A DNA stretch of 64,000 nucleotides from an uncultured bacterium (GCA_964448115.1 CAYUVA010000019.1:1-64000), one strand, 5' to 3'. Counted from the stretch's first letter, positions 948 to 47,294 are shown. A program made the numbers and translations. The notes: generated by a model from the sequence alone, not told the origin.

Positions 948-3900
948 CTATGGCTGATACTTGAATAACTCCTCACCATATAGATCATGAATAGCGCTGA
1001 AATACAGGATGCCATCTAAGGCAGTCAAGTAAGTTGGTTCAGATGCCCCTGTTGAATGTATATCTCGCACCATATAGGTCCCGCCGTCGGTTCCATCAGA
1101 TCGCCAAAGCTCTAGATCGAATGTTCCATCATAGGCAGCAAAATAAAGGATACCATCAAGATCAAACATCCAATTGGGGTTACTGTTTGGAGCACCGTTA
1201 TTGATATCCTTGACCAGCTTAGTACCTGAAGCAGTACCACTCGTTCTCCATAGCTCGGTACCTTCAGATGTAGTAGTCGCTCTGAAATACAGGTAATTCC
1301 CGGAGACAGCTAAGCTGGTAGGGGATCCATTGTTGACACCTAGTTCGATATCCTTAAGTAGTTCTGTGCCGGCTTCCGTGCCATCGCTGATCCATAGTTC
1401 TCGACCTTCTGTTGCAGTATATGCTGAGAAGATGAGCTTATTTTTATACACAACCAGATATTGTGGAGATGAATTCGATGATCCCGTGTTAATATCTTTT
1501 ACCCTATTTGTTCCTCCTTGAGTGCCATCTGATCTCCATAACTCTCGTCCATAGACCGTGTCGTATGCACTGAAAAATAACTTCCCCTTGTAGCTGGTAA
1601 GGAATGAGGGATTTGAATTCCCAGCAACATTAATGTCCTTGACCAGCTCAGTCCCCGCTGTCGTGCCATCTGTTTTCCATATTTCAGAACCGTTTGTGCC
1701 ATCATTCGCTCTAAAGAACAGCAGGTCGCCTGCTACAGTGAGATATAGTGGGTAACTCGAACCTGTAGGATCTATATCCTTGACCATGTAGGTGCCTGCC
1801 TCGCTACCATCCGATCGCCAAAGCTCAACGCCATTAGTCCCATCAGTTGCACTGAAATGAAGGATGCCGTTTAGGTTGGTCAGTCCATCTGGATCACTAT
1901 CACCGCTCGGATTGATGTCCTTGACCATATAGGTACCTGCTTCGCTACCATCCGATCGCCAAAGCTCAACGCCATTAGTACCATCTGTTGCCTGGAAGTA
2001 AAGGATATCATTGTGGCTGAATAGAGCATCAGGTTCTGATGAGCCACTGGGATTTATGTCCTTTACCATGGATACCGTTTCGGTTACCGGATCATACTTG
2101 TATAGCTCCCTGCCAGCTCCAGAGCCATCATCGCTACTGAAGAAGATCAGACCACCACAAGCAGTTAAATATTTTGGGTCGCTATCATCAGAACCTGGAT
2201 CGATATCCTCAATAAAGGTAAGCTGGTCAATGAACGGGCTATAAATAGTTCTCACCAAGCGGAAACCAGTATAGTTATTCCTGAATGTAATTGTGTTGTA
2301 GGCACGGTTTGCAGATCTGGCGTATCTAGCGTTCTTGGTCCAATCGCCTCCCCTAACGCTTCTTCGTGTGGTGCCGCTGGTATAAGGATCAGCAAAGTAA
2401 TCCCCGACATCATCCAATGGATAGGCAATTTTGGCATCCCAACATAATTCCATAACATTTCCATGTGCATCCCTAAGGTTCCAGGGATTTGCGTTCTTGC
2501 TCCCTGCTGGCTCTGTGTGCCCGGGATCGTTAGCTGAGAAAACACATACAGACTTGAGTGCCGTGAGATCCGGTGAAGGAGAATCTGTATCACATGTGGT
2601 TGCATCGTAGTTTGGCTCATCGATAGAGAATGCTCCAATTGTTCCAGCTCTTGTGAAGTACTCCACTTCGCCCTCTGTTGGTAAGCGAAATCCATCGACA
2701 TTCATATTGCAGAACCAAGGTGCTGTGCTGTAGTTGCTGGCATCCAAGGGTGTCTCGAAGTAGATATCCTTGTAGTAGCAAGGTGTGTATCCCTGTTCAA
2801 TGGATAGCAGATTAGCGAACAACAAAACCTCAGGCCAGAGAACTCGCTGCACTGGATAGCTCATAGCCGGGCTTGCGGATGTATCAGAGGGATCGGCGAT
2901 CAAGCTTGGTTGAACAGCTAATAAGTCGCTCCACATCTGCCGTGTTACCTCTGTGGTCATTACCGAAATATCCCTGGATAAGGTGTGATAAAACCAATCC
3001 TCGTCACCGTCCCTGCATGCCTCGGTTGAGGGTGAACCCTGCCTGAAGCCAACAGAATTGGTTCGATGAACAAGGCGCATGGTTCCTACGATATTATCGG
3101 TCTCCCAAATAGTTCCCGGAAGCGGGGTTGGAGTGTACTGTGGATATAGAGGCCAGCCGAAAACCCATGCGGCACCGGAGTCGGTGTAAGGAACCGTGTC
3201 ATCATAAGCTGCTCCTCCAACGATATAGTCTCCATACATGTCCAATCCATTCATTTCTCCAAGCAAATCCATGGCACCTCTATCATTTGCAACGAATTTG
3301 CCTACCTGGTTCCAACCCTTGGAGTTCCTTTCGTACAGGTAAACAGCTCCTCCATCTCCATCACTATCATCATCCCCAATTGCTCCTACCGCCAAGTAGT
3401 TACCATGCAATGCCATGGAAGTACCCAAATAATCACTGGCATCGACTTCTCCTGCTGAAAGTGTAATCTTTTGGGAGAAAGTGAAATTGAAGTCTTTTGC
3501 ATCTGGTGAGCGCTCATATATGTAAACTGCTCCACTATCATAAACCGGGTCATTATCCTGAGGTGCGGAGATCGCAGCGATGTTATTATCAATGGCTACA
3601 GCATAGCCAAAAAGATCATTAGCTTCTGGATCTGGATTCTCAATCGCTTGGATCTGCACCCAATTGAGATCAGCTTCCTCGTATTTAAAGATATAAGCCC
3701 ATCCCATACAAGAGATGTCTGGACCAGAACTCTGTTCGGATTTCATAACCGCACCGATGATCATCAGCTCCCCACTAATAGCTACAGAGTAACCAAAATA
3801 ATCATCTGTGTCTGTATTATCACCAAAAAGAATCTGGTATTCGGTCGCATCAACCCCCTGTATTTTATAAACGAATGCAGCTCCCGAATCAGGAGGATCC

Positions 3901-4976
3901 AACCTGTCGCTATAGTACGCACCAACAACAGCCCAGTCCCCGCTAATTGCAACTGAAGTACCAGAAGATTCAGAATGGTCCGACCACTCAGGACGCAACT
4001 TGGCTACCTGAGTCCATCCCTTACCCGCATTCTCGAAGATATAACCGGCGCCCTCACCGATAAAAGTTTCATTGTCGCCAGGCGCTCCAACCAGCAGCCT
4101 ATTTCCATCCATAGCAACGCTATAGCCGAAATAGTGATAGTCTATTGTATCGTCAGGAAACAAAATATTCATCTCCTCCCAGGAGTTAAGCGACCTTTGG
4201 AACAGATAAACAGCCCCAGATTGAACAATAGTATCATCAAGGCTATTGCAAAAGGGCGCTCCAGATGCGATCCAGTTCCCATTTATGGCTGCTGCATAAC
4301 CAAAATGATTATTATCAGACAGGTTGCTGGGGATCAGCTTGCAGCCCTGAGCGCAAATCGGCGTAGGAGTAAAGGTCAGGGTAGAAATCGCTGTAGGTGT
4401 ATAGGTCGGCGTATCGGTCGGTGTATAGGTCGGCGTATCGGTCGGTATAGGTGTGTTAGTTGGAGTATTCGGTCCGGTAGTATTGGTAGGTGTACGGGTT
4501 GGAGTATTCGTCATTGTCGGTGTATGGCTCGGAGTCCAAGATGGCTCGCCGGTATTGGTCGGCGTTGCGGTCGCCTCCGGGGTGGCAGTCGCAGTCGGTG
4601 TAGGAGTGGCGAAAGTATCGAAGCATTTTAGTTCCGGCCAGGTTGCTGTGGTTTCGTCGCTGCACTTTGCAATCAACCCCAGGATTATTTTGGCAGGATC
4701 CAACGGTGGATCTATTGGAACCATAGGGAATGTCCAGACTGCCTCATCCACTTGGGTAAGAAAAATACCAGTAGGAGATCCCTCCACGGTTAATTCAATT
4801 GATTCTACCGTGCAATCTCCGCCGGTTACGGCGAGGATCTCAAAGGTCCCGCCACCTGTTGTTGAGATTGTTGTTCCCATGTAACCCGCAGCCATGATTA
4901 GCGGATCTGCACAGGATAAAGCAACTGGTATCAGTAGAAAGCATACCAGCAGGGTCAACGAAAAATGTTTAGCCAT
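948..4976 (-). CDS. Secreted multidomain protein: unnamed N-terminal domain, Pro/Thr linker, FG-GAP repeat propeller, FGE-sulfatase (SUMF1/CLec-fold) domain, ELWxxDGT repeats
   Basis: Signal peptide; TPTxTPT linker; repeated FGYSVA..G...VGAP..D...GAxYx[26 protein letters not shown]...GFRLVR; many [14 protein letters not shown] repeats. Confidence 0.88.
1778..1992. repeat. Near-identical internal duplication of one ELWxxDGT unit (two copies 141 bp apart)
   Basis: tccttgaccat(g/a)taggt(g/a)cctgc(c/t)tcgctaccatccgatcgccaaagctcaacgccattagt occurs twice; protein [26 protein letters not shown] occurs twice. Confidence 0.85.
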
Positions 4977-14491: not shown

Positions 14492-15355
14492 TTGTGGACA
14501 CTGGTCAAGGTTTGCTTCTGGCTGCTTTTAGGCTCCAGCGCATTCAATGGATTCTTCTACGGCAATCGCTGGCAGGTAAGATTCAGCAAGCTCAAGGATA
14601 AGGATAGCTATCGGGGATACCACCGATACCTATGGACCAAAGCCCTGCTTGCTTTCTTCGCTGAGGTGGTGATCTCGCTTTGGTGCCAGTTCATTCTCCC
14701 CTTTTTCTGGCTTCCATCAAGGCTGTTTCCATCGCGCAAGGATAACAGCAAAGAACCGATCCTGTTCGTGCACGGCTATATGCAAAACTCCTCCAACTTC
14801 CTGTGCCTGGCGTGGCGACTATACCAGAGCGGGCTTATGAATCTCCATTTCATCAATATTCGCAGGATCTACAGCTCCGTGGAGCGCTCCGCAGAGCAAC
14901 TCAAGACAAAGGTTGAGGCTATTCTTAGTGAGCAGCCCGATGTCAAGATCACACTGATCGGGCACAGCCTCGGCGGATTGATCAGTCGCTACTACATCCA
15001 GCGTCTCGGTGGTAAGGAGAAGGTCAGGAGGCTGATCACCATCGGGACTCCGCATCATGGCACTGAAGCCGCCTGTTTCGGCTTTGGAGTCGCTGCGGCA
15101 CAGATAGTGCCAGGGAGCAGGTTCCTACAAGAGCTTAATGCGCCAGGCAACCTAGATGAAACGGTACCGATGATCTCGATATACTCAGACTTCGATCAGT
15201 TGGTCTATCCCTCGACCGCAGCCGTGTTGCCATCGCCGCAAAAAAGTATCGAGGTACCATACCTTGGGCATCTTTCGCTGCTTTATTCCAAGAGGGTTTT
15301 TCGCGCCATTAGAGAACTGGAACTGGAGTCTAAAAATCAAGCACCTTTTGATTGA
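14492..15355 (+). CDS. Membrane-anchored alpha/beta hydrolase (lipase/esterase)
   Basis: N-terminal hydrophobic segments; FVHGY, GHSLGG, IGTPHHGT, D..V, GH. Confidence 0.85.
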   Translation: MWTLVKVCFWLLLGSSAFNGFFYGNRWQVRFSKLKDKDSYRGYHRYLWTKALLAFFAEVVISLWCQFILPFFWLPSRLFPSRKDNSKEPILFVHGYMQNSSNFLCLAWRLYQSGLMNLHFINIRRIYSSVERSAEQLKTKVEAILSEQPDVKITLIGHSLGGLISRYYIQRLGGKEKVRRLITIGTPHHGTEAACFGFGVAAAQIVPGSRFLQELNAPGNLDETVPMISIYSDFDQLVYPSTAAVLPSPQKSIEVPYLGHLSLLYSKRVFRAIRELELESKNQAPFD

Positions 15356-21838: not shown

Positions 21839-21918
21839 CTGATACCTCTCTTTCTTTTTACATTACTGCTTTATTGTTTCTTATTGTCATTCATACCTTT
21901 TATAATCCTAATATCCTC

Positions 21919-32074: not shown

Positions 32075-33163
32075 ATGGAAAGGAGAAGTAGTAAAATGAA
32101 AAACTTTTTTTCCATTGTTTCGATTATCTTTCTTTCTATCTGTATGGCTTGTACAGGCGTTTATGCCTGGGGACCCTCGACACATAATGCTATAGCCCTG
32201 GCTGCGAAGAGCATTGTCGAGGAGAGCGACAATATAATGGACTGGGAACTATACGATGTAATCGAACGCTTCCCCGGCGCATACAAGGCAGGCTCGATAT
32301 TCCCCGATACCATGCTGGTTCACGCAAGGCAGATGGCTTTCTGGATACACCACCTTGAGTTTATCGATATCGAGACCAACTATTTCCTGGATAACTTCAG
32401 TGCCCCTTATAATGATGAGGCTTTGCGCATCTTGTGCCACTTCATGGGCACTACCACCCACATCATCGCAGATAATCGCTGGCATGGGGACTCGGAGCAT
32501 CCTTATACTGCCCTGCATCAATGCATCGAGAACGACCTTCCAGGCAATCCGCTCGCCGAGAGCATAATTGAGGCTGGTATCGACCTCTTTACTCAGCGAT
32601 ATGATCTTCATGGCGATGATGACCTGTCCGGATGGTTCATCCCGGCGGTTCACCTTGAGAAGATCTGTCGCGATAATGGATGGGGCGAGGAGGCTGATGT
32701 GAATAGGTTCGTGGAGAACACTCAATTCATCAATGTTGCGGTATGGTTTACCGATCAACTATGGGAGTACATCTTCGATGCAGCAAGGATAGTATTACCC
32801 TGGACACACGATCACTACAGGGAGCTACCTTATGGCGGATTGTTCGATGTCTTCGATGCCAGCGCAGCTCGAATCTCAGAGGAATGGGTGAAGATAAATA
32901 TATACCAAGACCTGTGGGCAAAAGGCTCATCGGCAACACTTATGCCTGGAAACCTTAATTATCGGCAACTAATGCTTCATCATAACCATCGCCACCATCA
33001 CTTTGCTGGATGCAACATCCCATTTTTCGACAAGGCGATAACTGCCCTTGAGCGAGGGATAATTAGGCAGGAAGTCTATCCGGTACCGGGGGGCTATGAG
33101 CTAGGTAATATCGAGATCATCGACGCTGAGGGTCTTGCTGACCTTTTAAGCGAATACCTTTAG
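32075..33163 (+). CDS. Secreted zinc-dependent phospholipase C family protein
   Basis: Signal peptide then W-G-x-x-T-H; GSIFPD, H..H, HIIAD..WH, E..ID. Confidence 0.8.
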   Translation: MERRSSKMKNFFSIVSIIFLSICMACTGVYAWGPSTHNAIALAAKSIVEESDNIMDWELYDVIERFPGAYKAGSIFPDTMLVHARQMAFWIHHLEFIDIETNYFLDNFSAPYNDEALRILCHFMGTTTHIIADNRWHGDSEHPYTALHQCIENDLPGNPLAESIIEAGIDLFTQRYDLHGDDDLSGWFIPAVHLEKICRDNGWGEEADVNRFVENTQFINVAVWFTDQLWEYIFDAARIVLPWTHDHYRELPYGGLFDVFDASAARISEEWVKINIYQDLWAKGSSATLMPGNLNYRQLMLHHNHRHHHFAGCNIPFFDKAITALERGIIRQEVYPVPGGYELGNIEIIDAEGLADLLSEYL

Positions 33164-36100
33164 ACTAAATGCAAATGCCTTAGGAACACGAAAAACTCGG
33201 CATTACCAGACATTTGCTGAAAAGCTGTAAATACATCCTTGGGATCTTTATATGTCATTCCCTGGTATTTGAATTTATCCAATAATGTATCGATTCGCCT
33301 TGCATCTGCAAGTAGAAACCCAGGATATCCAGCTATTATTTTCTCACAACCACTTATCAGTTCCTCATTCTCATTAGCGATCCTGTCAAACGCTCGCCTA
33401 AGATTACCGGGGTCGATGATCAGCAGTTCATTACCCGCGCTTGCGCTTATGGAGTAAGCTACCTTTCCATGCGCGGCAGCGATGGCAAACAGCCAATGAT
33501 CATGCTGTCCTGATGTGCATTTTAAGATCGGCTCAAAGCCCGTATTCAGGCATTTAATTGCATCCGGACAACGAATCATCCGTTTGCTTACATGGTATGC
33601 CAATGGGTAGAGCGCCAGCAGGTGAATATCCGCCTCATGTTGGAGATTAGAGCCAATGACATATAAAAGAAAACCATCTTTGTACGGAAGCAAACTCCAT
33701 TGATAATATCTACTTGAGTTTGGGTCATAGCCGGTAACATTGATGATTATCTCGAACCTGTCCGCAAGGCTCTCCAGGGTTGTTTCCCTGGCTTGGACAA
33801 TATAGGAAAATAATGGATTTACCTTGAAATCATACTCTACCGATGTTGAGTTATCCTTGGCCACCCGTTCGGCAAGGCTCAATAGTTTACGCCCCAGCTC
33901 ATCATCATTCATATCATCGCCTATAAATATGAGATCCTCCTGGGTGTCAGCTTCATCGTCCTGATAATCTGTATCAATAATTTCCTGCACGGTGTCTGAT
34001 GAAGTTTCAGCGGTCTCATCAGCGAACAAATCTGCCAACCTTCCAAGCCCGATGAGTAAAGGCTGGCTAAAAAAACGCTCCCTTTGATCCTCATCAGCAA
34101 GTGTGGACGCAGATTTTATCGAGCTGCTTATTGCATCTTGAGTCTTTTCGATGGCTCTTTTTTTATCCCCCTTATGATAGCGCACCAATGCCTCGACATA
34201 GTAAAGGTAAACGGCGAGAACGCCTGTATTATTATCATTACCGATCGGCTCATATAAATCTTCGATCATGTTCAACAGCATATCGAGAAAGGTTGCGTGC
34301 TCATGGACTGGGTAATCCGGGGACAATATATGATCTAAGCATAAAAGCCATGACCAAAGGTTTTCCCTTGACAAATGAGCGAATAGTCCTAGCTCTGTGA
34401 TCAGTTGTTCTGTATCCCTTTGTGCGATCTTAGGATCTTGATGATAATCATCGAGCCAAAGAAGCCGTTTGATCGTGTTTACTCTGGCTGCAAATGCTGA
34501 TCTTATCATAGAATTTAATGAAGCTCGCAGCTTTCCCAGACGCTTCCTTTGTCCAAGCAGGCTTTGAGCCATTAACAGGGCGATTTGAAGGCTTTGCGCC
34601 CTGAAACCTGTGCCTTCAAGTGAACTCAGTTGTTCCCCTGTCTCAAACTCCGCTTCTTCGAACCTTCCAAGCCAGATAGCGGCTTCTATGGACGAAATGA
34701 TGCTATTCAAACAAAGAAGCCTTTCACCAAGCTCCTCGCTCAGGTTCTTAGCTTGGTTAATGTCATCCTCTGCAGCCTTGAGATCCCCTGTCAAGAGACT
34801 GATATAGCCCTGGTTTATAAGGTTAGTAACCTTGGCTCGCGGATTCATCGCCTTATCAAGCAGCTCATTGCAATGCTCAACATGCTTGCTAGCACTTTTT
34901 ATATCCAACTCATCGATATATACCTGTGCCCGATGAGCATGACATAAAGCCTGCCAGGTAACTGATTTGATCGATACTGCTAGACTCATCGCCTCATCGA
35001 AGGAGGTATCTGCAAGCTCCAATTCGTCGTTATCATAGTATAAGGAAGCTAGCTCTATGAGCGCTTTTATCTGCTGTTCATAGAGCTTGTTTTCGATTGC
35101 GGAGCGGTGAGCCTGTTTGAGTCGCTTCAAGGCTTGGGCTTGATCAAGCCCTAATGATGCGATCACTCCCAGGTTGATGTTGGCGGTAACCTGGCATGAT
35201 ATATCTTGTGCCTTATGTGCATGCTCCAGCGATCTTGCGAAATACTGGCTCGCTTGCCCCAGATCCCCCTGCAACGAGTAGAGGTTGCCGATGTTCAGGG
35301 TAAGCCTGGCAATTAGCGATGGATCATTCGCCTTGTCGGACATATCAAGCGCCATTTTATATGCCTCTATCGCTTCTTCTGTCCTCCCCATGGTTGTATA
35401 TATATATCCCATGTTGCCATGAGCGCGCGCCAGGGCAACAGAATCCCCGGTTCGCTCAGCAATAATGCGAATCTCCTCCAGATCGGCAAGCGCGTGCTCC
35501 CCATCACCTATCTTAAAATATACCTCGGCGCGGCGATTGAGGATTTGCAGCCTTTTGTCAACCAGGCTTGGAGCATCTCCGATATGATCAATGCAATTGA
35601 TAGCATAGGAAAAATAATCGATAGAGCCTGGATGGTCATAAAGCTGAAGGCTCTTTTCGGCAGCGAGCAGGCTGTAATCGAGCGCCTTGTGGTAGTCCTC
35701 TGATGTGTAAAAATGCCGGCAAAGCTCGAAGATATGGTCGTCGATATCATCTTTGTATAAGCGCTCGATGAGTCTCCCAGCGCGGCGATGCAGCATGATC
35801 TTTTCATGGAGCTGAAGGTTCTTGTGCAGCAGGTCTTTGAGCTTCCCATGCTTGAATACGAAGACATCCCTTCCTAGCTGTCTGGCATCGGAGATGAAAT
35901 TCCCCTGCTTGAGACCGTTGATCATCTTGAAGGCAGCTACTCCCTCTAAACCAAGATACTCCTGGAGCATCTCAAATGACGGATTCTTACCCAGAACGCT
36001 CATGAAAAGAAGCAATTGGCGCTGCTCGTCAGGCAGCCTTTGCAAACGAGCAAGCAGGATCTTATCCAGGGAGGTTTCAGTCTCCAGCGAATCGATCTTT

Positions 36101-37815
36101 ACAGCTAGTTCCCATCGGTTGCGACTTCTTACAAGAACATCCCGATCAACCAGGTTCTGCATCAGCTCCAGAATGAAAAGAGGTTTACCGCTCGTATCAT
36201 CGAGTATCCTGGGAGCAAGAACCGAAAGCTGGGGTATATCACCGATCAACTCCTTGATGAACTCGCTGGTCAACACGAGATCGAATGGCTTTAGCTCGAT
36301 GACCTTTACCAGCCTCGATATCGATGGGCGTCGCCAGAACTCCATGTCTATCCGGCTAGTGTTTTCGATATGTGCCTCGTCGCTATCATAGGTGCCAAGA
36401 ATAAGGACAGATAATCCTTGATAGGCTCGCTGGTCATCTGTGAGTGTTGTCTGAATAGCCTCTTGCAGAAGATAATGCTCGAAAAAACGTATCGACTGGG
36501 GATCGAGAAGCTGCAGGTCATCGAGAAAAATGACCACTGGATATTGGCGAATTCCATCCCTAAGAACCGATCCAAGACCCTCGTTGATCCACTCAATACG
36601 CCTATCGAAGTCATCGGGTACGATGCTTTCATCGAATTCAACAGTATGTTTGATTTCTGGCAGTAAGACTGACAAAGCGCCTAGTGGCTGGGGATCAAGG
36701 TTCTCTAGTTGGATGCGTTCAAGCCGTAACATCTCCCTAAAAAGCTGGATCAATGGTAGAAACGGGGAGCTGGCTGCTGCGCCGAGATCGATCCTGTAAA
36801 ACTGGATTCTATTCAACTGACAGTGGATCTTGAATTCCTCGGCTATACGCGTCTTCCCGACTCCTAGCTCCCCTTCCATGATTACTAGTGAGCTTGATGG
36901 GGAGCGAACCATCTTGCCTTGTAAACACCCCTTCAAGGTCTCGAACTGAGGTTGCCTATCAACCATTCGGGCAGTAAGCACTATCCTCTCCGGCTTGGGG
37001 AGGGAGATTCCATACTCCGAGCCGATCGCAGAATCGAGATCCTGAAGCACCTCAAAACAAAAATGATATCTCTCCCGAGGATTGACTGCCAAGAGTCGAG
37101 CAATAATACCTTCAACGCTACGGGGAATCCAATCCACGATTCTTGATGGTGATATGTATTCTCCAAGAACTTGCTTGCGAAATACCTCGCCGACATCATC
37201 ACCGTAAAACGGCTTGTATCCGGTTACAAGCTCATAGAAGATAACCCCCAGAGAATAAAGATCGCTGGCAGCCGAGGTCGCTTCCCCTTGCAGCACCTCC
37301 GGAGCTATGTAGCCAATGGTTCCACGCACCTTCTGTTGCGTCCTGAGATCGACACTCCCCACTAGACCGAAGTCCATTAACATGGTGCGTTGAGGTGTCC
37401 TTATTACATTAGCTGGCTTGATATCACGGTGCAGTAGCCCCCTTGTGTGAATAAAATCTATTGCATAGAGGAGGTGCGCTATCATCTCAATGCAAAGGGG
37501 GAATTCGACCTTGCCGACAAGCATATTCAACGGATCTCCATCCACATATTCCATTGTAAAATAAGGTGTGGTTTTATCGAGATATCCGAAGTCATAAGCG
37601 CGGGCTATATATTCATACTTAAGTTCGGCGAGCACCTTGAATTCGCGCTCAAAGCGATGGAGTTCGCCTGCTTTTACCAGGCGAGTATCCAGGATTTTAA
37701 GCGCCACGGTTCGGTCTTTCAGGGTATCACGACACTTATAGACCGTGCCCATACCGCCCTTGCCGAGAAGCTTCTCAACCTGGTAACGGTTGTCGATAAC
37801 CTTGGGTGAATCCAT
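33160..37815 (-). CDS. Ser/Thr kinase - AAA ATPase - TPR protein with degenerate SpoIIE-like C-terminus
   Basis: GKGGMG, VALK, HRDIKPAN, DFG, APE; Walker A GELGVGKT, Walker B IFLDDLQ, GKPLFILE; TPR array. Confidence 0.88.
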   Translation of the reverse strand: MDSPKVIDNRYQVEKLLGKGGMGTVYKCRDTLKDRTVALKILDTRLVKAGELHRFEREFKVLAELKYEYIARAYDFGYLDKTTPYFTMEYVDGDPLNMLVGKVEFPLCIEMIAHLLYAIDFIHTRGLLHRDIKPANVIRTPQRTMLMDFGLVGSVDLRTQQKVRGTIGYIAPEVLQGEATSAASDLYSLGVIFYELVTGYKPFYGDDVGEVFRKQVLGEYISPSRIVDWIPRSVEGIIARLLAVNPRERYHFCFEVLQDLDSAIGSEYGISLPKPERIVLTARMVDRQPQFETLKGCLQGKMVRSPSSSLVIMEGELGVGKTRIAEEFKIHCQLNRIQFYRIDLGAAASSPFLPLIQLFREMLRLERIQLENLDPQPLGALSVLLPEIKHTVEFDESIVPDDFDRRIEWINEGLGSVLRDGIRQYPVVIFLDDLQLLDPQSIRFFEHYLLQEAIQTTLTDDQRAYQGLSVLILGTYDSDEAHIENTSRIDMEFWRRPSISRLVKVIELKPFDLVLTSEFIKELIGDIPQLSVLAPRILDDTSGKPLFILELMQNLVDRDVLVRSRNRWELAVKIDSLETETSLDKILLARLQRLPDEQRQLLLFMSVLGKNPSFEMLQEYLGLEGVAAFKMINGLKQGNFISDARQLGRDVFVFKHGKLKDLLHKNLQLHEKIMLHRRAGRLIERLYKDDIDDHIFELCRHFYTSEDYHKALDYSLLAAEKSLQLYDHPGSIDYFSYAINCIDHIGDAPSLVDKRLQILNRRAEVYFKIGDGEHALADLEEIRIIAERTGDSVALARAHGNMGYIYTTMGRTEEAIEAYKMALDMSDKANDPSLIARLTLNIGNLYSLQGDLGQASQYFARSLEHAHKAQDISCQVTANINLGVIASLGLDQAQALKRLKQAHRSAIENKLYEQQIKALIELASLYYDNDELELADTSFDEAMSLAVSIKSVTWQALCHAHRAQVYIDELDIKSASKHVEHCNELLDKAMNPRAKVTNLINQGYISLLTGDLKAAEDDINQAKNLSEELGERLLCLNSIISSIEAAIWLGRFEEAEFETGEQLSSLEGTGFRAQSLQIALLMAQSLLGQRKRLGKLRASLNSMIRSAFAARVNTIKRLLWLDDYHQDPKIAQRDTEQLITELGLFAHLSRENLWSWLLCLDHILSPDYPVHEHATFLDMLLNMIEDLYEPIGNDNNTGVLAVYLYYVEALVRYHKGDKKRAIEKTQDAISSSIKSASTLADEDQRERFFSQPLLIGLGRLADLFADETAETSSDTVQEIIDTDYQDDEADTQEDLIFIGDDMNDDELGRKLLSLAERVAKDNSTSVEYDFKVNPLFSYIVQARETTLESLADRFEIIINVTGYDPNSSRYYQWSLLPYKDGFLLYVIGSNLQHEADIHLLALYPLAYHVSKRMIRCPDAIKCLNTGFEPILKCTSGQHDHWLFAIAAAHGKVAYSISASAGNELLIIDPGNLRRAFDRIANENEELISGCEKIIAGYPGFLLADARRIDTLLDKFKYQGMTYKDPKDVFTAFQQMSGNAEFFVFLRHLHLV

Positions 37816-37820
37816 TATGC

Positions 37821-39452
37821 CTAGTTAACGGTGAGGTAAGGAAAACTGCCAATGATATTCCATGATTGGTCGTAACCATTAAGCTCAAGCAGCGTTTGAG
37901 ATGGTATGACCGAGGTTTCGCTAGCGGAAAGATTCAACTGTAACCCGAATATACCATCTCCAGCCCCGTAATCACCTTGGGAACCGTTATCGAACAGGTA
38001 GATATCGGTTGCATCCCCCTGGTAAAATATCTCCACCTGTTTAATATTCGTATTAGCAGCAAATGCGAGCATACTGAGCATCCCTCGTTCACCCTTGCTT
38101 AGCCTTGTATTCCAGTATCCTGCGAGCATGTATGAGAATTTCGGCGCTTGTTGCGTGGCGGTAGGGCTTGGGGTATAGGTGTGATCCGGCGTCGGCGTGA
38201 TGGTCGGAGATGGTCTCGGAGTCGGTGTGTTGGTGGCTGCGCCGTATTTTGTGATCGTAAATTCGTCCAAGACCTCTCCTCTTTCGCTCTGGATAGCCTT
38301 CAGGTTCAATATCCCCGCCTTGTCTATGCTCACCTTGCAAAGATTGTACTCTTTCTTCTTGGTGGCGATGTAATAGTCGGGACCAACATCGGAAAGCCCC
38401 CTTCCACCACCGCCGGTTACCACATAGATAATGCCCTCCGGCTCATCGTAGAGGTTCTGGTTGCTATCGGTTACCATGTTCTCCTTGAGGGGGAATGTTC
38501 GCTCGTAGAAGTGCTCATGGGCGCTGAAGACCACATCGACACCATGCTCCTCGAACAAGGGCACCAGGTGCTGCTGAATCTGCTCATTTCCACCCTGGTG
38601 GATATAGGGGCTGTGGTGCATATATACGATGATCCAATGGGTAAGGGGATCAATGCTGGCGAAATAGAGGTCGTTATTCAGCCAGTCGTACTGCTCCGAG
38701 GCTTGCTCAAAGGGGCTTAGAGTATCCAGAGCCACGAAGTGCACCTGTCCCCAGTCGAAGCTGTACCACTGCTCGTTGCCGGGAAGAATGAACCTGCCAT
38801 GGAAGCTGGTATATCCGAGATCGTTGCCCCAGATGTCCTCCTCTCTGTCCTCGTCTCCTTTGCAAGGCAACAAGGGTGCGATGGAGGAAAGGGGCTGTAT
38901 CATGTTCAGGTAAAGATCCCATTGGAAAAGGTATGGAGAGACGCAGGCAACATCGCCAGCGATGAGGTGAAGAGCGGTATTCGCCTGTGTAGCTCGGTTG
39001 ACCGCCGATGATGCCGGCACCGAGAAGCCGTGGGAGCCAAAGATGGTGAAAACGAAATCATCCGCATAATCTGGCGCTGTCTTGAAGACTCCCTCCTCGC
39101 TCCAGCCACCTTGATCGTTCCCACAGACATAATAATAGGTCGTATTGGGCATAAGCCCGGTTAACTCAGCAAAGTTGATCCAGACATCGCTCACATTAGG
39201 AGCTGGATACTTGTTGCCTAACGCCTGCCTGGTATATTCGCCGCTCGCCAAGCCCGCCTTGACATAAGGTGCATAATCTCCTCTGGTAGTCTCCCAGGTT
39301 ATGATCATAGTTCGGCTCGGATCTGTCTTGAAGGAGAGCCGAATATGAGCCGGCAGATCCGCAGCATAAACGACTCCGCACCCTACCAGTATCGATATAC
39401 AAAGCGACAGGAACCCTCTGCTCCAGCATTCCTCAGCCTTTGTCAGGTTCAA
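37821..39452 (-). CDS. Secreted purple acid phosphatase-like metallophosphoesterase with altered metal motifs, Pro/Thr linker and unnamed C-terminal domain
   Basis: FN3-like PAP_N (LTGLMPNTTYYY), WYSFDWG.VHFVALD, QYDWL..DL, H.H.YER, YVVTGGGG. Confidence 0.85.
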   Translation of the reverse strand: MNLTKAEECWSRGFLSLCISILVGCGVVYAADLPAHIRLSFKTDPSRTMIITWETTRGDYAPYVKAGLASGEYTRQALGNKYPAPNVSDVWINFAELTGLMPNTTYYYVCGNDQGGWSEEGVFKTAPDYADDFVFTIFGSHGFSVPASSAVNRATQANTALHLIAGDVACVSPYLFQWDLYLNMIQPLSSIAPLLPCKGDEDREEDIWGNDLGYTSFHGRFILPGNEQWYSFDWGQVHFVALDTLSPFEQASEQYDWLNNDLYFASIDPLTHWIIVYMHHSPYIHQGGNEQIQQHLVPLFEEHGVDVVFSAHEHFYERTFPLKENMVTDSNQNLYDEPEGIIYVVTGGGGRGLSDVGPDYYIATKKKEYNLCKVSIDKAGILNLKAIQSERGEVLDEFTITKYGAATNTPTPRPSPTITPTPDHTYTPSPTATQQAPKFSYMLAGYWNTRLSKGERGMLSMLAFAANTNIKQVEIFYQGDATDIYLFDNGSQGDYGAGDGIFGLQLNLSASETSVIPSQTLLELNGYDQSWNIIGSFPYLTVN

Positions 39453-39766
39453 TTTATTACCTCCCAGAAGGCAACTTGCTGATCATATATCATAGTCGAT
39501 GATTTTTTTCGAGGATGTTATCTCCATATTTCTGCAACTTTTTCAACCGCCAGGGTACATTGATGCAAAGTTTCACCGAGGATCTTCTTTGTTATCTTGT
39601 AACTTCAGGGTTAGAAGACCTCGCATCCATTCTTTGACATTATTTTAAAGGTTGGGTATGTAATATATTGCTATGTATCAGGAAGTGATCTCTATAGGGC
39701 TAGCACCCTTTGTAAATAATGCCTTTTTCAATAACACAAAACCTCATTCATCTAGGAGAGATAGCC

Positions 39767-42700
39767 ATGAGTAACAACAATACCCTCCGACTTTTGGGCA
39801 CGACTGTTGCGCTACTTCTGCTTTTTGCCTCTTATGGTTTCAGCGCGGTATGGGTGGCTGCTGATGAAGAAATGCACCCCACAGGTAAACAGCTTCAACT
39901 GGTATCAGAGCAGGATAATCGCATTGATGTTCGTTTCTCCTTTGCCGGGCTTACCATCCATGAAACTATGGTCAAAGGAAATATGTTCGCTGTTGCCCGT
40001 GCCGAGGGATTTGGCGTAACTAACCAGGTCGGCTTGCCCTTGCTGCCAGTTCTTAGAAAAGATGTGGAGATACCCCGCGGAGCCAAGGTCTCGCTCCAAA
40101 TCATAAAAGCAGAATACAGGGACTATAAACTCGAAGAACTAGGCATAGATCTTACTATTGCGCCGGTGCAACTGCCGGTGCCCAAGTATCTGCATCCCGA
40201 TGAGATCCCCTTTGTCATGGATGAAAAGTTCTATCAGCAAAGTGTCATCTATCCTGAGCAGTTGGCATCCATAGGCAATAATCATGTAATCAGGGGACAC
40301 GAGCTGGTTACATTGGAGATCTTCCCGGTCAAGTATAATCCTGGAGCAGGGATGCTTAGGGTTTACGATAGCATCGAGGTTCGCATCGTAACCAGCCCAG
40401 GAAGATACGACTATAGCGAGCTTGAACGCCTAAGCAGCCGCTCCTTTGACCGCATGATAAAAAGCATTGCGCTCAATCCCAAACTTCCCGAAGCGACCAA
40501 AAGCAAGGATGATCCAGTGCACGCCGAGTGCTACCTGGTGATCCTTCACGACAGCCTTCAGCTTGCTTTAACCCCATTTCTGCAATGGAAGCAGCAGCAG
40601 GGCTACCAGGTTATCATAAGGAAAATATCGGAGTGGGTCGATCCATCGCCAGCAAACATAACATCATATATCTCCGATGCTTATTTCAACTGGGATCTAC
40701 CCCCCTCGGAGATACTACTGGTCGGAGACACGGGGCAGGTGCCGTGCCATACTGGCAGCAATAGCGGCACTGCAACCGACCTCGATTTCGTAACCGTGGA
40801 TGGGGAGGATTATTTCCCTGATATACATATATCGCGCTTCTCCGCCACGCAGGGGAGCGAGATAACCCCGCAGGTTAACAAGCTATTGGCTTACGAACAG
40901 ATGAACTACCTGGTGCCCTCCTGGCCGAAGAAGGCTTGCTTCATAGCAACTGATGATTCTTACCACTATGATATTGCCGAGGGGACGCACAACTATGTGA
41001 TCGACAATTATCTTGCTCCGGCAGGCTTCCTGGTGATGGACAAGATATACGCTATTACTTACGGCGGCGATACCCAGGATATCAAGGATGCGATCAACGA
41101 TGGCAGGACCATTGTCGATTACTCAGGTCATGGCAGCACCTATAGCTGGGCGGGTCCGGATTTTGAGGAGAGCGACATTGCTAGCCTGACAAACACTATT
41201 TACCCGATAGTTATAAGCAATGCCTGCATCACCGGCACCTTTGATGTTGGCGAATGTTTCGGCGAGATGTGGCTGCGTGAGCCGAGCAAGGGCGGCTCCT
41301 GCCACTGGGGCGCCTCGGACAGCACATACTGGGACGAGGACGATATCCTGGAGAAGGAGATGTTCCGCTACATGTTCGAGGAGGGTTTCTTTGAAACTGG
41401 TGAGTTCTTCGACCTTGCCAAGTACGGGCTTTATCTGTACTACGGCGATGTTGACAATGTCGAGTATTATTACGATGTATATAACATTCTCGGCGACTGC
41501 ACCCAGGATATGTGGAGCGATTACCCGATGCAGGTTACGCCTTTGCACGCTGGCTCTGCGCCATTGGGCGAGGGAGAATATGAGGTGGTGGTTACCGCTG
41601 GGAACGATAAGTTCAATGTCGAGGGTGCTCTGGTCGCTATGAGAAAGGGTGAGGAGTTCAGTTCCTCTGGTTATACCGATGATACCGGCTCGGTTACGCT
41701 TTGGATAAATCCGCTGACCGACGGGGATATTAACCTGACCATCACCGGGCACAATCTGAAGCCTTACTTCGGCACTGTAACCGCAATGATACCGGGCTGT
41801 GGGATCGTGAAGATGGATAAAGATACCTATAGCTGCGATGATACTATAAATATCACTCTCTGGGATGCTGATCTTAATACCAATCCTGAGACCATTGAGG
41901 ATGCCAATGTAACCATTAACAGCACCTCCCACCCGGAGCCAATCGTGGTCAATCTTATGGAGACCGAGGTGGATAGCGGCAAGTTCGTCGGCTCCATAAA
42001 CACCAGCTCTGCCAAGGGCAAAGATGAGCTGCCGGTAGCTGATGGTGATACGATCACTGTTATTTATAATGATGCGGACTGCGAGGGGGAGCCAGCAGTC
42101 GTTGAGAAGACCGCTACCGCTGACTGCGTTGGTCCGATCATAAGCGGTATCGAGGTTAGCGGCATCACCGACACCAAGGCTGTTGTAACCTGGATAACCG
42201 ATGAGCCTTCGGACAGCATCGTTCATTATGGCACCGATCATCAACTGGGCAACCAGGTCTCCGATAGCTCAAAGAGCATTAACCACGAGGTGGAGATCAC
42301 CGGTCTAACCGGCGCTATGCTCTATTACTTCAAGGTCGGTTCTGCCGACGCGGTGGGGAATTATACCGAGGATGACAACAATGGCGATCTTTATATTTTC
42401 GTTACCGCCAACATCGTGAATGCCTTCACTTGCAACTTTGAAAGCCCCTGCGGACTCACCGAGGAAGGTGATGGACAGTGGGAGATCGATACACCAAAGG
42501 GCTTAGGGAGCGGATATTACGGGAATCCGGATCCTTCGGTCGATCACACCTTTGGCACCGCCGAGGGGCATATTATGGGTGTCGATATAAACGAAGACGG
42601 CATATACGAGTCAAACTCAGACTGCTCAATGCTGACCCCTCCCTTTGATTGCAGTGATCTGACCGAGGTCAAGTTGAGCCTATGGCACTGGCTCAACATA

Positions 42701-43480
42701 GAGAGCGCCTCTTATGATCATGCGATACTCAAGGGCAAAGCAGGCTTGAGCACCTGGCAGACGCTCTGGGAGCATACCGGCAGCAGCAGGAGCGACAATA
42801 GCTGGAGCGAATTATCGCTGGATCTCTCCAGTTTCGCTGATGGGAAAGCTAATGTGAGGTTGCTTTTCCAGTTGACCTCTGATTCGAGCGTAGAGTACAG
42901 CGGATGGAATATCGATGATATAAGGGTTTATGGATACGGACCCGCCTTCACCCCAGAGCCGACGCCGACCAGAACTCCTACAGCAACTCCTTACATTACC
43001 GATACGCCGACCCCGACCGCCACCGCGACACCGCAGCCGACGGATACACCAACAATGACGCCTACCGATACGCCTGAACCTACAGCGACTCGGACTCCTA
43101 CCCGGACGCCTACAGTTACCAATACGCCATCTGCCACCCATACACCGACCGCCACCCCAACTATCTCTACTCAGCGACCGATTATCACTGTTGGTGGATA
43201 CATGGACACCAGGCTTACTAGCGGCATTGAGGGAATATTGAACCTGCTTGCAGCCAGCAGCGACTTTGCTCATGCCGAGATCGATAATGTCGAGCTTTGT
43301 TACATGGGTGAGGGAACCGGCGTTTATCTGGATGAGAATCCGCCGGGAAGCGGCATTTACACTCTGCTTTTAAGCCAGTTGAATGTCCCGGTCCCGATGA
43401 ATATATTGCTCGAGATCGTTGCCACTGATATAAATAGCCAAAAGAGCAATCCCTGGCCATATTTAGTGGTGGAAGACTAA
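39767..43480 (+). CDS. Gingipain-like C25 cysteine peptidase with propeptide, accessory beta-sandwich modules, Pro/Thr linker and unnamed C-terminal domain
   Basis: Start at ATG 39767 behind GGAG; propeptide [27 protein letters not shown], catalytic YSGHG and NACITG, CFGE.W, YNILGD. Confidence 0.9.
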
Positions 43481-43520: not shown

Positions 43521-46500
43521 GTGCCCAGGTACACTGCTATACTTATCGCCCTTGTACTTATTCTATTACCCCAAAGTAGCTTCCAGTTGGAAGATGGCTC
43601 GATGATAAGATTGAAAAGAGCGGTATTCGATCCCCTGGTAAAAGAGCCAAGCATTAAGGATTCTCTCTCTTATCGACCCTCGCAGCTTCCAAAGCTTTAT
43701 TACGCCATAATCCAGGCGAACAGTCCGATTACTGATGAAATAAAGCGTTCTTGGATAGATGCCGGCGCTGTGCTCATGGACTATATCCCGGAGAACGCCT
43801 TTATCGCGAGGATAGATGCTGAAGCTGAACGACGATTAAGGAGCACCAAGAGCTTCCGCTGGCTGGGACTCTACCATCCGCATTACAAGCTATCCCCTAG
43901 CCTATTCGATATGGAGCCTTGGCAGCCGGGCAGATACAAGCTCTTTATCCAGTTGTTTAGCGGCGAGGGCTTCGATGGGGCGGTAGATGCGTTAGTTTCC
44001 GCTGGGGGAGAGGTGATCGAACTCGATGGAGCCTGGGATAAGCACAAGAGGATCGTTGCCATGTTCGATGAAAGCGTGCTATACAATGCAATAAACTCAG
44101 TAGCTCGCGTGATGTCAGTGGAGTGGATTGAACCGTATCCTAAATATACGCTTTGCAACGATCAGGGTATCTGGATCTGCCAGAGCGGTCTTTACCGTCA
44201 AAAGGCGACACCGGTCTGGGATAACGGCATTCACGGCGAGGGGCAGATCGTGGCTGTGCTTGACTCTGGTTGCGATCCAGACATGTGTTATTTTTATGAT
44301 GAAAGCCAAGGATTGCCCTCGGAGACACCCAACTACGATCAGCGAAAGATAGTAGCCTACCAGAACATAGGTGTAACTGGCGATTGGGACACGCATGGAC
44401 ACGGCACCCATACAGCAGGCACGGTTGCCGGGGACAACTTCGAGAACCCAATCATACATGACAGTGGCGATGGTATTGCTCCGGGTGCAAAGCTGGTCAT
44501 CCAAGACTTGAGCTATCAGGGTGGCTTCACCGTCCCCAGCTCGCTGTTCGATGTGTTTCAGCAGGCTTACGATGCCGGAGCACGAGCACACTCGAATTCA
44601 TGGCGCTTCCACAACAGCGAGTACGGAACTCACGCCCAGGAGCTGGATGACTTCGTATGGCAGAACCGGGACTTTTCTATAATCTTCGCCATGGGGAATG
44701 AGGGTCCCTCATCAGGAACCATAGGCTCTCCACCAGTTGCAAAGAACTGCGTCAGCGTGGGGGCTACTCAGGCAGGTATGAACGCGGAGAGCATGACCGA
44801 TTTTTCGAGCCACGGTCCCTGCCAGGATGGAAGGAGGAAGCCAGAGGTATCAATGCCGGGTGAAAACACGGTCTCGGCAGGCAATGATGGTAATCCTGAT
44901 AGCTTCAACTGCTCCACAACCACCATGAGCGGCACTAGCATGGCTACGCCTGGTGTGGCAGGATGCGTAGCCCTGGTTCGGCAATACTTCGCGGAAGGCT
45001 ATTACCCATCAGGCTCAGCCAGCGAGGATGATGCCTTCAATCCGAGCGCAGCGCTGGTAAAAGCTATACTAATAAACTCAGGGGACAATATGACCGGCGC
45101 CTACACTGCCGATAGCGGCTCCGGCTCTCAGCCCATACCGACCAACGGTCAGGGCTGGGGAAGGGTGAACCTCGATACAGCGCTATATTTCGCTGGGGAT
45201 CGCAGGTATCTTTATATTGATGATAACACCGAGGGCTTGAGCGCCTTTCAGAACATTACATATCGGATCGCGGTGATAGACAGCTTCGAGAAGCTGGAGA
45301 TAAGCCTTGCCTGGAACGACTATCCATCCACTCCAGAGGCACAGAAGAACCTGGTCAACGACCTGGATCTGATGGTACAGCATGGCATGACCACCTATCT
45401 GGGGAATGTTTATTCTGGGGGTCAATCAACACCTGGCGGCAGCAGAGACACCCTGAACAACAACGAGTGCGTGCAGATAAATAATCCCAATCCGGGACTT
45501 TATTACATAACCGTCCAAGCCAGGGGCATACCCCAGGGACCTCAGCCTTATGCGCTGGTGATAACCGGTGGCTTCCGCACCTCGGATGGCGATATCTCCT
45601 TCTCCAGCCGTAAGTTCAATTGCCACGATACCGTACAGATCACCGTTGCCGATATCGACCTCATCGGACAAGGCACATACACGGTGGAGGTTACCAGCGA
45701 CAGCTATCCGCAGGGCATGGAGGTGGAGCTTGTCGAGGTCTCCGGCGCTGGTGTCTTCAAGGGGGAGTTTCAGGTCGCTCCTGCCGGCAGCAAGGATGTA
45801 CTCCCGGTCAACGAGGGAGATATGCTCAATGCCCAATATATCGATGCTGACGATGGCAGGGGACATCAGAATGTGGTCAAGATCGCACAGGCAGCCATCG
45901 ACTGCACCCCACCTTTGATCAGCGATATACAGCTCAGCGATTACTCCCAGGACAAGGCGACCATCAAGTGGAACACCGATGAGAAGGCTACCAGCATCGT
46001 TTACTACGGCACCACCCCCGAACTCGGATCCCAGGCAGTAAATCAGCTCTACACCCAAGAGCATTCTGTTACCCTAGTGGGGCTTTCCGGTAACACCTTC
46101 TATTACTACATGGTCGCCTCCATCGACGAGGCGGGCAATTACGGCTCTGATGCCAATGATGGCAGGTACTACGGCTTCGTAACCAAGAACATCATCGTGC
46201 CCTTCTATGATAGCTTCGAGTTCATGCGCGGCTGGGCACAGAGCGGTGATGGTCAATGGGAGCGCAACTTCCCCCAGGGCAAAGGGGGCGGGATGCTTGG
46301 CAATCCAGATCCTGATCAAGACCATACCAGCGGCCAGGGTAAGGTCTTCGGAACTGATCTAACGCAGGATGGCAACTATAATCCTACCTCGGACTGCACT
46401 ATTACCTCTCCAGCTATCGACTGTCGCCAGTGCGTAAACACGGAACTAGGCTTCTTCCAGTGGCTCAACATCGGCGGCATGAGTATCTTCGGTACCACGG

Positions 46501-47294
46501 TAACCGCCCAGGTTAGCAACGATGGCGCCAACTGGACGACCATATACCAGGAGACGAGTCGCAGCGACCTCAGTTGGAACGAACAGGTGATTGATATAAG
46601 TTCGGTTGCCGATGGAAAGAACAATGTCCGCGCTCGCTTTCGCCTGCAGAGCAACCTGTTGTTTGGCGATTACAGCGGTTGGAACATCGATGATTTCTAT
46701 ATTCGCGCCACCAGCAACCAGGCGGCTCCCAACACTCCAACCCCGCTGCCGACCTGGACGCCGACTCCGTTGGGGCAAAAGACAGCAACCCCGACCACTA
46801 CCCCCACCGCCACCGGCAGCATATCGCCGACCCTGCCGCCGACCTCGACCAGGACTCCGACCAGCACCAACACAGCCGGTCCGGGCACTCCCACCAACAC
46901 TCCCCTGGCAACTGAGACGCCGACTGCGCCCTCAACCATTACCGCCACAGCAACCGCCACTGCCACGCCGACAGCCACTATTCCCGGCAGCAATCAAGGT
47001 CCCGATGTTTGGCTTGTAGGTTACATGGACAGCAGGTTAAGCAGCGCTCATGGCGGTAACCTGGTCATTCTCGGCACTTGCAGCGACCCGGAGGGTGATG
47101 CGATACTCTCAGTTGATCTTTATTATGCGGGGCAGCCGGCTGGTGTAACAATCCCATACAGTCAGGGCATATTCACTATGTCCATGCCGATATCGCCCGG
47201 TGTCCCGTCAGGACATATTCTGCTCGAATTCGCCGCAATAGATGCGAAATATAGCCGCGGTGCACTGAGTCCATTTCTCCACTGCGATCAGTAG
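43521..47294 (+). CDS. Secreted S8 subtilase (KP-43-like) with the same accessory modules, linker and C-terminal domain as the upstream C25 protease
   Basis: VLDSG, HGTHTAG, AKNCVSVGA, GTSMATP, PSAALVKA, QGWGRV, LVNDLDL; AAGGAGG RBS and GTG start. Confidence 0.92.
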   Translation: MPRYTAILIALVLILLPQSSFQLEDGSMIRLKRAVFDPLVKEPSIKDSLSYRPSQLPKLYYAIIQANSPITDEIKRSWIDAGAVLMDYIPENAFIARIDAEAERRLRSTKSFRWLGLYHPHYKLSPSLFDMEPWQPGRYKLFIQLFSGEGFDGAVDALVSAGGEVIELDGAWDKHKRIVAMFDESVLYNAINSVARVMSVEWIEPYPKYTLCNDQGIWICQSGLYRQKATPVWDNGIHGEGQIVAVLDSGCDPDMCYFYDESQGLPSETPNYDQRKIVAYQNIGVTGDWDTHGHGTHTAGTVAGDNFENPIIHDSGDGIAPGAKLVIQDLSYQGGFTVPSSLFDVFQQAYDAGARAHSNSWRFHNSEYGTHAQELDDFVWQNRDFSIIFAMGNEGPSSGTIGSPPVAKNCVSVGATQAGMNAESMTDFSSHGPCQDGRRKPEVSMPGENTVSAGNDGNPDSFNCSTTTMSGTSMATPGVAGCVALVRQYFAEGYYPSGSASEDDAFNPSAALVKAILINSGDNMTGAYTADSGSGSQPIPTNGQGWGRVNLDTALYFAGDRRYLYIDDNTEGLSAFQNITYRIAVIDSFEKLEISLAWNDYPSTPEAQKNLVNDLDLMVQHGMTTYLGNVYSGGQSTPGGSRDTLNNNECVQINNPNPGLYYITVQARGIPQGPQPYALVITGGFRTSDGDISFSSRKFNCHDTVQITVADIDLIGQGTYTVEVTSDSYPQGMEVELVEVSGAGVFKGEFQVAPAGSKDVLPVNEGDMLNAQYIDADDGRGHQNVVKIAQAAIDCTPPLISDIQLSDYSQDKATIKWNTDEKATSIVYYGTTPELGSQAVNQLYTQEHSVTLVGLSGNTFYYYMVASIDEAGNYGSDANDGRYYGFVTKNIIVPFYDSFEFMRGWAQSGDGQWERNFPQGKGGGMLGNPDPDQDHTSGQGKVFGTDLTQDGNYNPTSDCTITSPAIDCRQCVNTELGFFQWLNIGGMSIFGTTVTAQVSNDGANWTTIYQETSRSDLSWNEQVIDISSVADGKNNVRARFRLQSNLLFGDYSGWNIDDFYIRATSNQAAPNTPTPLPTWTPTPLGQKTATPTTTPTATGSISPTLPPTSTRTPTSTNTAGPGTPTNTPLATETPTAPSTITATATATATPTATIPGSNQGPDVWLVGYMDSRLSSAHGGNLVILGTCSDPEGDAILSVDLYYAGQPAGVTIPYSQGIFTMSMPISPGVPSGHILLEFAAIDAKYSRGALSPFLHCDQ

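Follow-up and report, generated by a model that had tools for sequence, protein, structure and literature searches.

Several described modules invite comparison with the domain discussed here. The C-terminal domain (CTD) of the T9SS is a small beta-sandwich found at the end of exported proteins and is, in the strict sense, C-terminal and present in a single copy. Dockerins are helical calcium-binding pairs. “Choice-of-anchor” domains are those that lie upstream of one of several alternative C-terminal anchors. Finally, a catalytic domain followed by a Pro/Thr linker and a terminal beta-sandwich is the architecture of CBM-bearing enzymes.

The stretch of DNA analyzed here (the window) comprises 64,000 nucleotides of one contig of an uncultured bacterium (GCA_964448115.1, CAYUVA010000019.1:1-64000). 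An initial annotation proposed that an unnamed domain of about 100 residues recurs on four unrelated secreted proteins of the window, in three cases at the C terminus behind a Pro/Thr linker (on a phosphatase-like protein, a C25 peptidase, and an S8 peptidase) and in one case at the N terminus of a 1342-aa protein, and that this domain is a lineage-specific module that routes or tethers its cargo at the cell surface. Profile matches place all four copies as described, and a composition scan finds a Pro/Thr-rich linker of 39 to 96 residues at each. The features are as follows.

948..4976, minus strand: gene for the 1342-aa exported protein (domain, Pro/Thr linker, seven FG-GAP_2, FGE-sulfatase-like, eight ELWxxDGT)
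4341..4628, minus strand: Pro/Thr-rich linker after the N-terminal copy, 96 aa (composition scan)
4617..4916, minus strand: domain copy, short variant, N-terminal in the 1342-aa protein (profile E 1.2e-40)
37821..39452, minus strand: purple-acid-phosphatase-like gene (Pur_ac_phosph_N and Metallophos)
37824..38159, minus strand: domain copy, long variant with the DNGxxGDxxAGDG loop, at the exact C terminus of the phosphatase-like protein (profile E 3.3e-38)
38136..38252, minus strand: Pro/Thr-rich linker of the phosphatase-like protein, 39 aa (composition scan)
39719..43480, plus strand: C25 (gingipain-family) peptidase gene (Pfam)
42932..43189, plus strand: Pro/Thr-rich linker of the C25 protein, 86 aa by a sliding-window rule (composition scan, translation)
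43163..43477, plus strand: domain copy, short variant without the Asp-rich loop, at the exact C terminus of the C25 peptidase (profile E 4.7e-42)
43521..47294, plus strand: S8 peptidase gene (signal peptide, Peptidase_S8, PPC, FN3/PAP-N-like, Pro/Thr linker, domain)
46710..46997, plus strand: Pro/Thr-rich linker of the S8 protein, 96 aa (composition scan)
46989..47291, plus strand: domain copy, short variant, at the exact C terminus of the S8 subtilase (profile E 1.1e-39)

The C25 protein reads, in order, signal peptide, Propeptide_C25, Peptidase_C25, FN3/PAP-N-like and MAM-like domains, Pro/Thr linker, and domain, with the linker as called running a few residues into the domain start; in the 1342-aa protein, the N-terminal sequence places the copy directly against the signal peptide. 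The Pfam and NCBIfam assignments to the four proteins confirm that the cargo is unrelated. In pairwise BLASTP comparisons, the C25 tail matches the other three copies at E 2e-12 (S8 tail), 6e-14, and 2e-7 (N-terminal copy), with identities of 25 to 36%. Judged by these alignments, the four window copies are homologous, the range of E values (2e-7 to 6e-14) excluding chance.

How does this locus compare with the modules outlined above? The window tails stop 3 to 4 residues past a WPYL-type motif and show no hydrophobic segment, in agreement with the claim that they lack a transmembrane anchor. An end of the LPXTG or PEP-CTERM type (motif, hydrophobic helix, and basic tail) is absent from these tails, which finish in WPYLx[IV]x(x), and the T9SS CTD models (TIGR04183 and PF18962) match 0 of 39 aligned copies (NCBIfam at E <= 0.01, Pfam at E <= 0.1); the tails are thus distinct from all three, as had been claimed. 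A TIGR04183 search of the whole genome gave no match, its controls being silent too. Pfam has no match on the four window tails, and a Pfam scan of the 39 copies returns only faint Ig-like matches, e.g., Big_7 (PF17957) in 3 of 39 (best E 0.012). Neither PF00404 (dockerin), SLH, nor any CBM family in Pfam matches the four window proteins or the 39 copies.

Several other genes lie in or near the window. A second S8 subtilase (731 aa; positions 15337-17532, minus strand) lacks both the Pro/Thr stalk and the domain; exported peptidases thus do not all carry the tag. A further carrier gene, encoding 635 aa, lies about 5 kb beyond the window end on the same contig (C19:69169-71076, match at C19:70765-71070). 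Adjoining the phosphatase-like carrier gene is a gene for a 1551-aa protein (33160-37815, minus strand) that combines a Ser/Thr protein kinase, an AAA_16 ATPase, and a long TPR region and whose approximately 400 C-terminal residues are unannotated. A low-GC island (19805-23601; GC 0.275 to 0.293 versus about 0.48 in the flanks), which may have been acquired horizontally, encodes a 530-aa ORF without a Pfam family and a 560-aa GT-C membrane glycosyltransferase (PMT_2/Glyco_transf_22-like). The latter enzyme could in principle glycosylate Pro/Thr stalks; nothing connects the two here. GT-C glycosyltransferases are numerous in this genome.

The four copies first noticed turn out to be a large undercount. 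The window's own genome (3.98 Mb, 86 contigs, 94% complete) yields 150 scored matches to the four-copy profile among 219 candidates. In a census by hmmsearch on all stop-to-stop ORFs of at least 80 residues, the four-sequence profile finds 193 copies on 159 proteins, and two rounds of profile rebuilding raise this number to 200 copies on 162 proteins (one copy in 126, two in 35, and four in one). The carriers account for 161 of 2928 nonoverlapping ORFs (5.5%) and for 151,327 of 1,213,588 encoded residues (12.5%). That is, one eighth of the organism's coding capacity is given over to proteins with this domain, and no curated family covers the whole module.

The anatomy of the carriers is consistent. 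For 142 of 162 proteins (88%), no more than 15 residues separate the end of the last copy from the stop, and in 86 of 99 C-terminal cases the stop follows the WPYL-type motif after 3 to 4 residues, with variable final residues. A Pro/Thr stretch of at least 15 residues (median 60, maximum 204) stands ahead of 100 of 156 first or sole copies and ahead of only 4 of 38 later copies, and the domain is present in 126 of the 164 ORFs of this genome that contain a Pro/Thr-rich 20-mer; stalk and domain thus form one cassette. The expected association with signal peptides also emerged: by rule-based heuristics on stop-to-stop ORFs, used in place of a gene caller or SignalP for both signal-peptide and linker counts, 133 of 153 carriers with a complete 5' end test positive, compared with 646 of 2304 other ORFs. 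Inspection by eye reveals a hydrophobic leader in most of the 20 negative carriers but not in about 5, and a lipobox-like motif occurs in only 8 of 153. Two carriers of 289 to 295 residues with redoxin-like N-terminal parts (C51:10139-11026 and C82:171-1040) lack a signal peptide when read from their first start codon; unless these starts are mis-set, they are exceptions to the rule that carriers are exported. Five others continue for 44 to 145 residues past the domain (C53:14193-17885, C16:63855-66227, C29:36661-38718, C25:34153-37008, and C1:76596-78365) and share the end P-x-x-P-S/A-N-P-x-P-x-x-G-A-T/V-x-V-x-P-N(P). We rejected read-through of these GATxVxPN(P) tails, as the stops are TGA, TAG (three times), and TAA and the downstream frame is not open; by sequence, the motif looks like the first strand of a truncated Ig/FN3 domain.

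Because the copies so strongly favor the C terminus, a role in export or sorting must still be considered. Under such a scheme, the domain would be a C-terminal signal for a translocon or a sortase-like enzyme, to be removed afterward or used for covalent attachment, and would occupy the slot of the T9SS CTD, which it resembles in size, beta-sandwich fold, and cargo number. However, the strict C-terminal, single-copy placement of the CTD is not what we find for the 199 copies whose position was assigned: about 6 occupy the N terminus, 19 have an internal position, and 33 precede a terminal copy. The N-terminal copies start a few residues from the predicted signal-peptidase site and are followed by the linker. 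An export signal would also sit oddly on long, flexible Pro/Thr stalks that set it apart from its cargo, and the residues past WPYL are not conserved.

The relationships among the copies suggest an old family. The identity of each copy to its nearest neighbor has a median of 46% and exceeds 60% in only 8 of 199, and we read the copies, from these sequences, as old paralogs of a family that has been maintained. On a tree of the 199 copies, the state “C-terminal” versus “other position” switches 37 times (shuffled mean, 50), each N-terminal copy neighbors a C-terminal one, and tandem pairs are sister copies in just 1 of 35 cases. Two variants exist, a long one with an Asp/Gly-rich loop between two strands and a short one without the loop, and variant type is phylogenetically coherent (23 changes on the tree versus a shuffled mean of 63).

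Outside this genome, the family is large and restricted to few lineages. Searched against 1.84 billion cluster representatives, the profile recovers 1167 proteins at E <= 0.001, 618 at E <= 1e-10, and 191 at E <= 1e-30. Among the best 150 of the 1167 representatives, 24 of which are this genome's own proteins, the domain is C-terminal in 117, near the N terminus in 5, and elsewhere in 28. The genome is the sole representative of its phylum in our genome set; among 40 other sampled genomes, which are its kin only at the level of the taxonomic domain, one (CSSED10-310) carries the module. Within CSSED10-310, 11 of 14 genomes have it, with 4 to 49 matches each, and it also occurs on one contig labelled Candidatus Coatesbacteria. 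This pattern agrees with the proposed lineage restriction. The CSSED10-310 genome announcement, the only dedicated paper that we found, predicts Gram-negative, possibly motile heterotrophs and is silent on the domain (PMC8248873).

Is the domain really unnamed? It has no Pfam model, as described above, yet one NCBIfam model, NF041940 (choice-of-anchor X, 37 positions), the sole NCBIfam match, covers the central loop of the long variants, so the claim stands in part. At E <= 0.01, this model matches 23 of the 39 aligned copies, each time on the loop of the long variant; across the genome, it matches at 59 places with E <= 1e-3, and most of these exceed its 25-bit cut-off. In the window, it scores 26 bits on tail residues 55 to 76 of the phosphatase-like protein and gives no match at E <= 1 on the C25, S8, or N-terminal copies. 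By sequence, then, membership in NF041940 holds for long variants only. The motif of the model appears in 11 of 39 other sampled genomes (the 40 less the CSSED10-310 one), in 1 to 4 copies each; the full-length domain profile scores these proteins weakly, at 5 to 36 bits, and 3 of 11 examined end in T9SS-type tails, a circumstance that counts toward the export reading. We found no work on choice-of-anchor X or NF041940 by name, and, judged by title and abstract opening, none of the choice-of-anchor papers listed concerns X.

Based on an AlphaFold2 model of the C25 tail built on the 39-copy alignment (mean pLDDT, 90.2), the domain of approximately 105 residues is confidently modelled as an Ig/FN3-like beta-sandwich of seven strands. 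The modelled strands fit the sandwich of the Ig-like/E-set group, and the sequence match to Big_7 is faint. Foldseek against the PDB finds no match at E <= 0.001 (best E 5.8e-3), its top rows being CbhA Fn3-like modules, a sulfite-oxidase dimerisation domain, and the Ig-like domain of P. gingivalis PPAD; an independent structure search (VIA) gives a best Z of 8.1, with a flat list of Ig and FN3 domains. The profile's best match among PDB sequences (E 0.024) is spurious, and an ESM Atlas search returns only unnamed clusters (score 0.90). As modelled, the fold is generic. A two-copy homodimer prediction scored 0.00 against a mark of 0.42, which counts neither for nor against self-association. 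The copies are acidic, with a median net charge of -8 (negative in 98%), and depleted in Lys (1.8% versus 5.4%) and Arg (2.5% versus 5.1%).

Could such a sandwich be no more than a structural part? In that case, it would be an inert, protease-resistant Ig cap or spacer that aids folding, solubility, or stability and that spread by domain shuffling, with no common ligand. The nearest structures are indeed linker modules of secreted glycosidases (CbhA Fn3-like, chitinase A1 FN3, and xanthanase), and the depletion of Lys and Arg would suit a genome with six gingipain-family peptidases, gingipains having Arg/Lys specificity. However, a spacer has nothing to hold apart when it caps the unattached end of a 60-residue stalk, the fact that Pro/Thr stretches and the domain so rarely occur apart points to a function of the domain's own, and some 200 diverged copies have been retained. 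A passive role is further at odds with the small, conserved protein described next. On balance, we find it improbable that the domain is passive.

A small open frame of 171 to 264 residues contains the best-scoring copy of 10 of the 11 CSSED10-310 carriers, and the window's own genome has an equivalent:

C4:99847-100407 (locus L049:7848-8408), plus strand: cargo-less protein, 186 aa, of the window's own genome

Compared across this genome and eight CSSED10-310 carriers, the cargo-less proteins have 163 to 222 residues and consist of a signal peptide, a spacer of 50 to 90 residues for which the model shows helices at low confidence, and a single domain of the long variant that ends in LWPYL[TN][IV]; the orthologs have 28 invariant columns in common. 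A conserved protein without evident cargo speaks against an export signal, and its invariant columns speak against an inert spacer. In our genome, its gene adjoins an AhpC/TSA lipoprotein gene and a gene for a GH31 enzyme with an N-terminal domain copy. In CSSED10-310, its neighbors are housekeeping genes (KhpA, FabF, Mfd, SelA, IF-2B-family, and HD-GAF), whose order is conserved only inside that lineage; the synteny does not reach our genome, in which the unannotated neighbors F2, F5, and F7 have no convincing homolog (best, F7 at E 3e-4). For these reasons, we rejected the neighborhood as a source of partners.

The cargo itself is diverse. We scanned 70 of the best 150 representatives, taken in rank order with at most 1300 residues each and 49,000 residues in total, nearly all of them two-copy proteins. 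Their cargo includes S8 and M14 peptidases, FG-GAP repeats, PQQ-type propellers, BNR, beta-helix, lamin-tail, PKD, FN3, and prenyltransferase-like domains, and 33 of the 70 have no family at E <= 1e-5. The domain terminates all 6 C25 genes of the genome. Elsewhere, 33 of 115 homologs of the C25 protein list PF18962, the T9SS CTD (32 of them together with PF01364), and 3 list dockerin, whereas our domain is found on only 3, namely, the window's own protein and two without a public source. Such cargo families are typical of the T9SS and are in keeping with an export signal.

The same inventory raises the prospect of binding outside the cell. The domain might recognize, in the manner of a CBM or an adhesin, a polymer or surface outside the cell, such as detritus, mineral, or prey cells, and thereby direct many hydrolases to a common substrate. 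Its carriers share the layout of CBM-bearing enzymes; the structure search lists one CBM-family sandwich (2c4x, Z 7.5) amid many Ig and FN3 rows; the cargo includes peptidase, GH31, BNR, beta-helix, and phosphatase domains; and tandem copies would give avidity. However, much of the cargo is nonhydrolytic (FG-GAP, beta-propeller, LTD, and PKD) or, in the 33 scanned carriers noted above, falls into no Pfam family. It is also difficult to picture one external ligand for about 160 such different proteins, and no CBM family is matched, so we rate this reading as quite unlikely.

What envelope would these proteins meet, and what machinery would handle them? The cell is diderm, judging from its genes: three BamA-family (Omp85) frames score above the TIGR03303 cut-off (C2:65262-67889, C9:52567-54936, and C25:48306-50705), and TonB-receptor and TamB genes lie within the window. 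SprA, the T9SS translocon, has no match in the 94%-complete genome or in the sampled CSSED10-310 carrier, in a search that matches 17 of 41 sampled genomes, 8 of them above cut-off (the controls of a first SprA run had been silent). T9SS machinery was judged by SprA, and sortase-type signals were judged by the sequence of the tails. If the domain is an export signal, carriers without SprA must be served by another route. Two GspD-type secretins are above cut-off in this genome; we rejected them as a specific partner because a noncarrier has two as well. The number of BamA-family paralogs was discarded as a clue to a partner, since carriers have 1 to 4 and three noncarrier CSSED10-310 genomes have 2 to 4, and C25 as a PorU-like sortase was discarded, since six C25 genes occur here and fourteen in the sampled CSSED10-310 carrier, and these behave as cargo.

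The dedicated translocon or scaffold that the initial annotation envisaged did not appear: these searches identified no translocon, processing enzyme, ligand, receptor, or cohesin-like scaffold. Such an outcome (BamA numbers are alike in carriers and noncarriers, C25 is multicopy cargo, and the conserved neighbors are housekeeping genes) speaks against an export signal and taken together with the N-terminal, internal, and tandem copies leads us to doubt that the domain serves primarily in export. By the same token, it agrees with a passive module and leaves room for both the passive and the external-substrate readings.

In total, the observations outlined above lead us to a tentative preference, held at somewhat less than even confidence, for a model in which the domain tethers its carriers noncovalently to a ligand that they share in the envelope or matrix of the producing cell. 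In this model, carriers would be exported by Sec signal peptides, as sequence heuristics suggest. Their probable way across the outer membrane would be a type II route, in view of the GspD secretins and the negative search for T9SS. The module would then stand at one end of the mature protein, mostly the C-terminal and sometimes the N-terminal end, usually on a Pro/Thr stalk of about 60 residues, and would bind its ligand noncovalently, thereby keeping many different enzymes and adhesin-like proteins near the cell. We speculate that the Asp-rich loop of the long variants and the net charge of about -8 reflect binding bridged by divalent cations and that the cargo-less protein may be a free form that occupies or organizes the same ligand.

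We favor a tether because the module occurs at either end, in tandem, on a long flexible stalk, and in a conserved cargo-less form. Of the two functions originally proposed, routing is thus weakened by the N-terminal, internal, and tandem copies and the cargo-less protein, and a tethering, dockerin-like role fits the architecture better; with no partner or machinery found, the mechanism is one that we infer. Other observations count against a tether. Generic Ig/FN3 sandwiches are often mere spacers, an exact C-terminal placement in 88% of carriers is how a C-terminal export signal would look, and the gene neighbors of the cargo-less protein are housekeeping genes. The surface location of the carriers is also putative, and they could be periplasmic or released. 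One may go further and posit an undescribed surface-display system of T9SS-free diderms, for which the domain would be the address tag and the cargo-less protein the core component. About 160 proteins would then dock, via a possibly glycosylated stalk, on a shared envelope receptor or lattice, and the system would be common to a monotypic phylum and CSSED10-310; we regard this more elaborate proposal as unlikely.

If the domain is a tether, it would define how two rare, uncultured diderm lineages without a T9SS build their cell surface, and it would provide a simple sequence marker for the surface proteome of both. Although the organisms are uncultured, tests of binding lie within reach, because the domain is of modest size, its structure is predicted well, and expressing it is easy.

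Returning to the described systems, the T9SS CTD offers a clear parallel: the CTD and this domain are both small beta-sandwiches that end very many unrelated exported proteins of a diderm cell, and their cargo families are similar (C25, S8, FG-GAP, PKD, and beta-helix). In contrast to the CTD, the domain also occurs N-terminally, internally, in tandem, and on long Pro/Thr stalks. With dockerin, cohesin, and SLH modules, it shares the character of a noncatalytic terminal module that follows a Pro/Thr linker, is common to many enzymes, may sit at either end, and can be duplicated, whereas its model is all-beta and the dockerin is helical. The likeness to choice-of-anchor X lies in the long-variant loop, L-x-D-D/N-G-x-x-G-D-x-x-A-G-D-G-x-Y, which fits NF041940; the difference is that the model spans only about 20 to 25 of the approximately 105 domain residues. 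Elsewhere, the motif belongs to internal Ig-like domains with sequence beyond them, but here the domain is itself the terminus, and in place of an anchor downstream we find nothing after it in 142 of 162 carriers. As far as sequence can tell, the family is a lineage-specific terminal offshoot of a broader, uncharacterized Ig-like group, of which the existing model catches only the loop.
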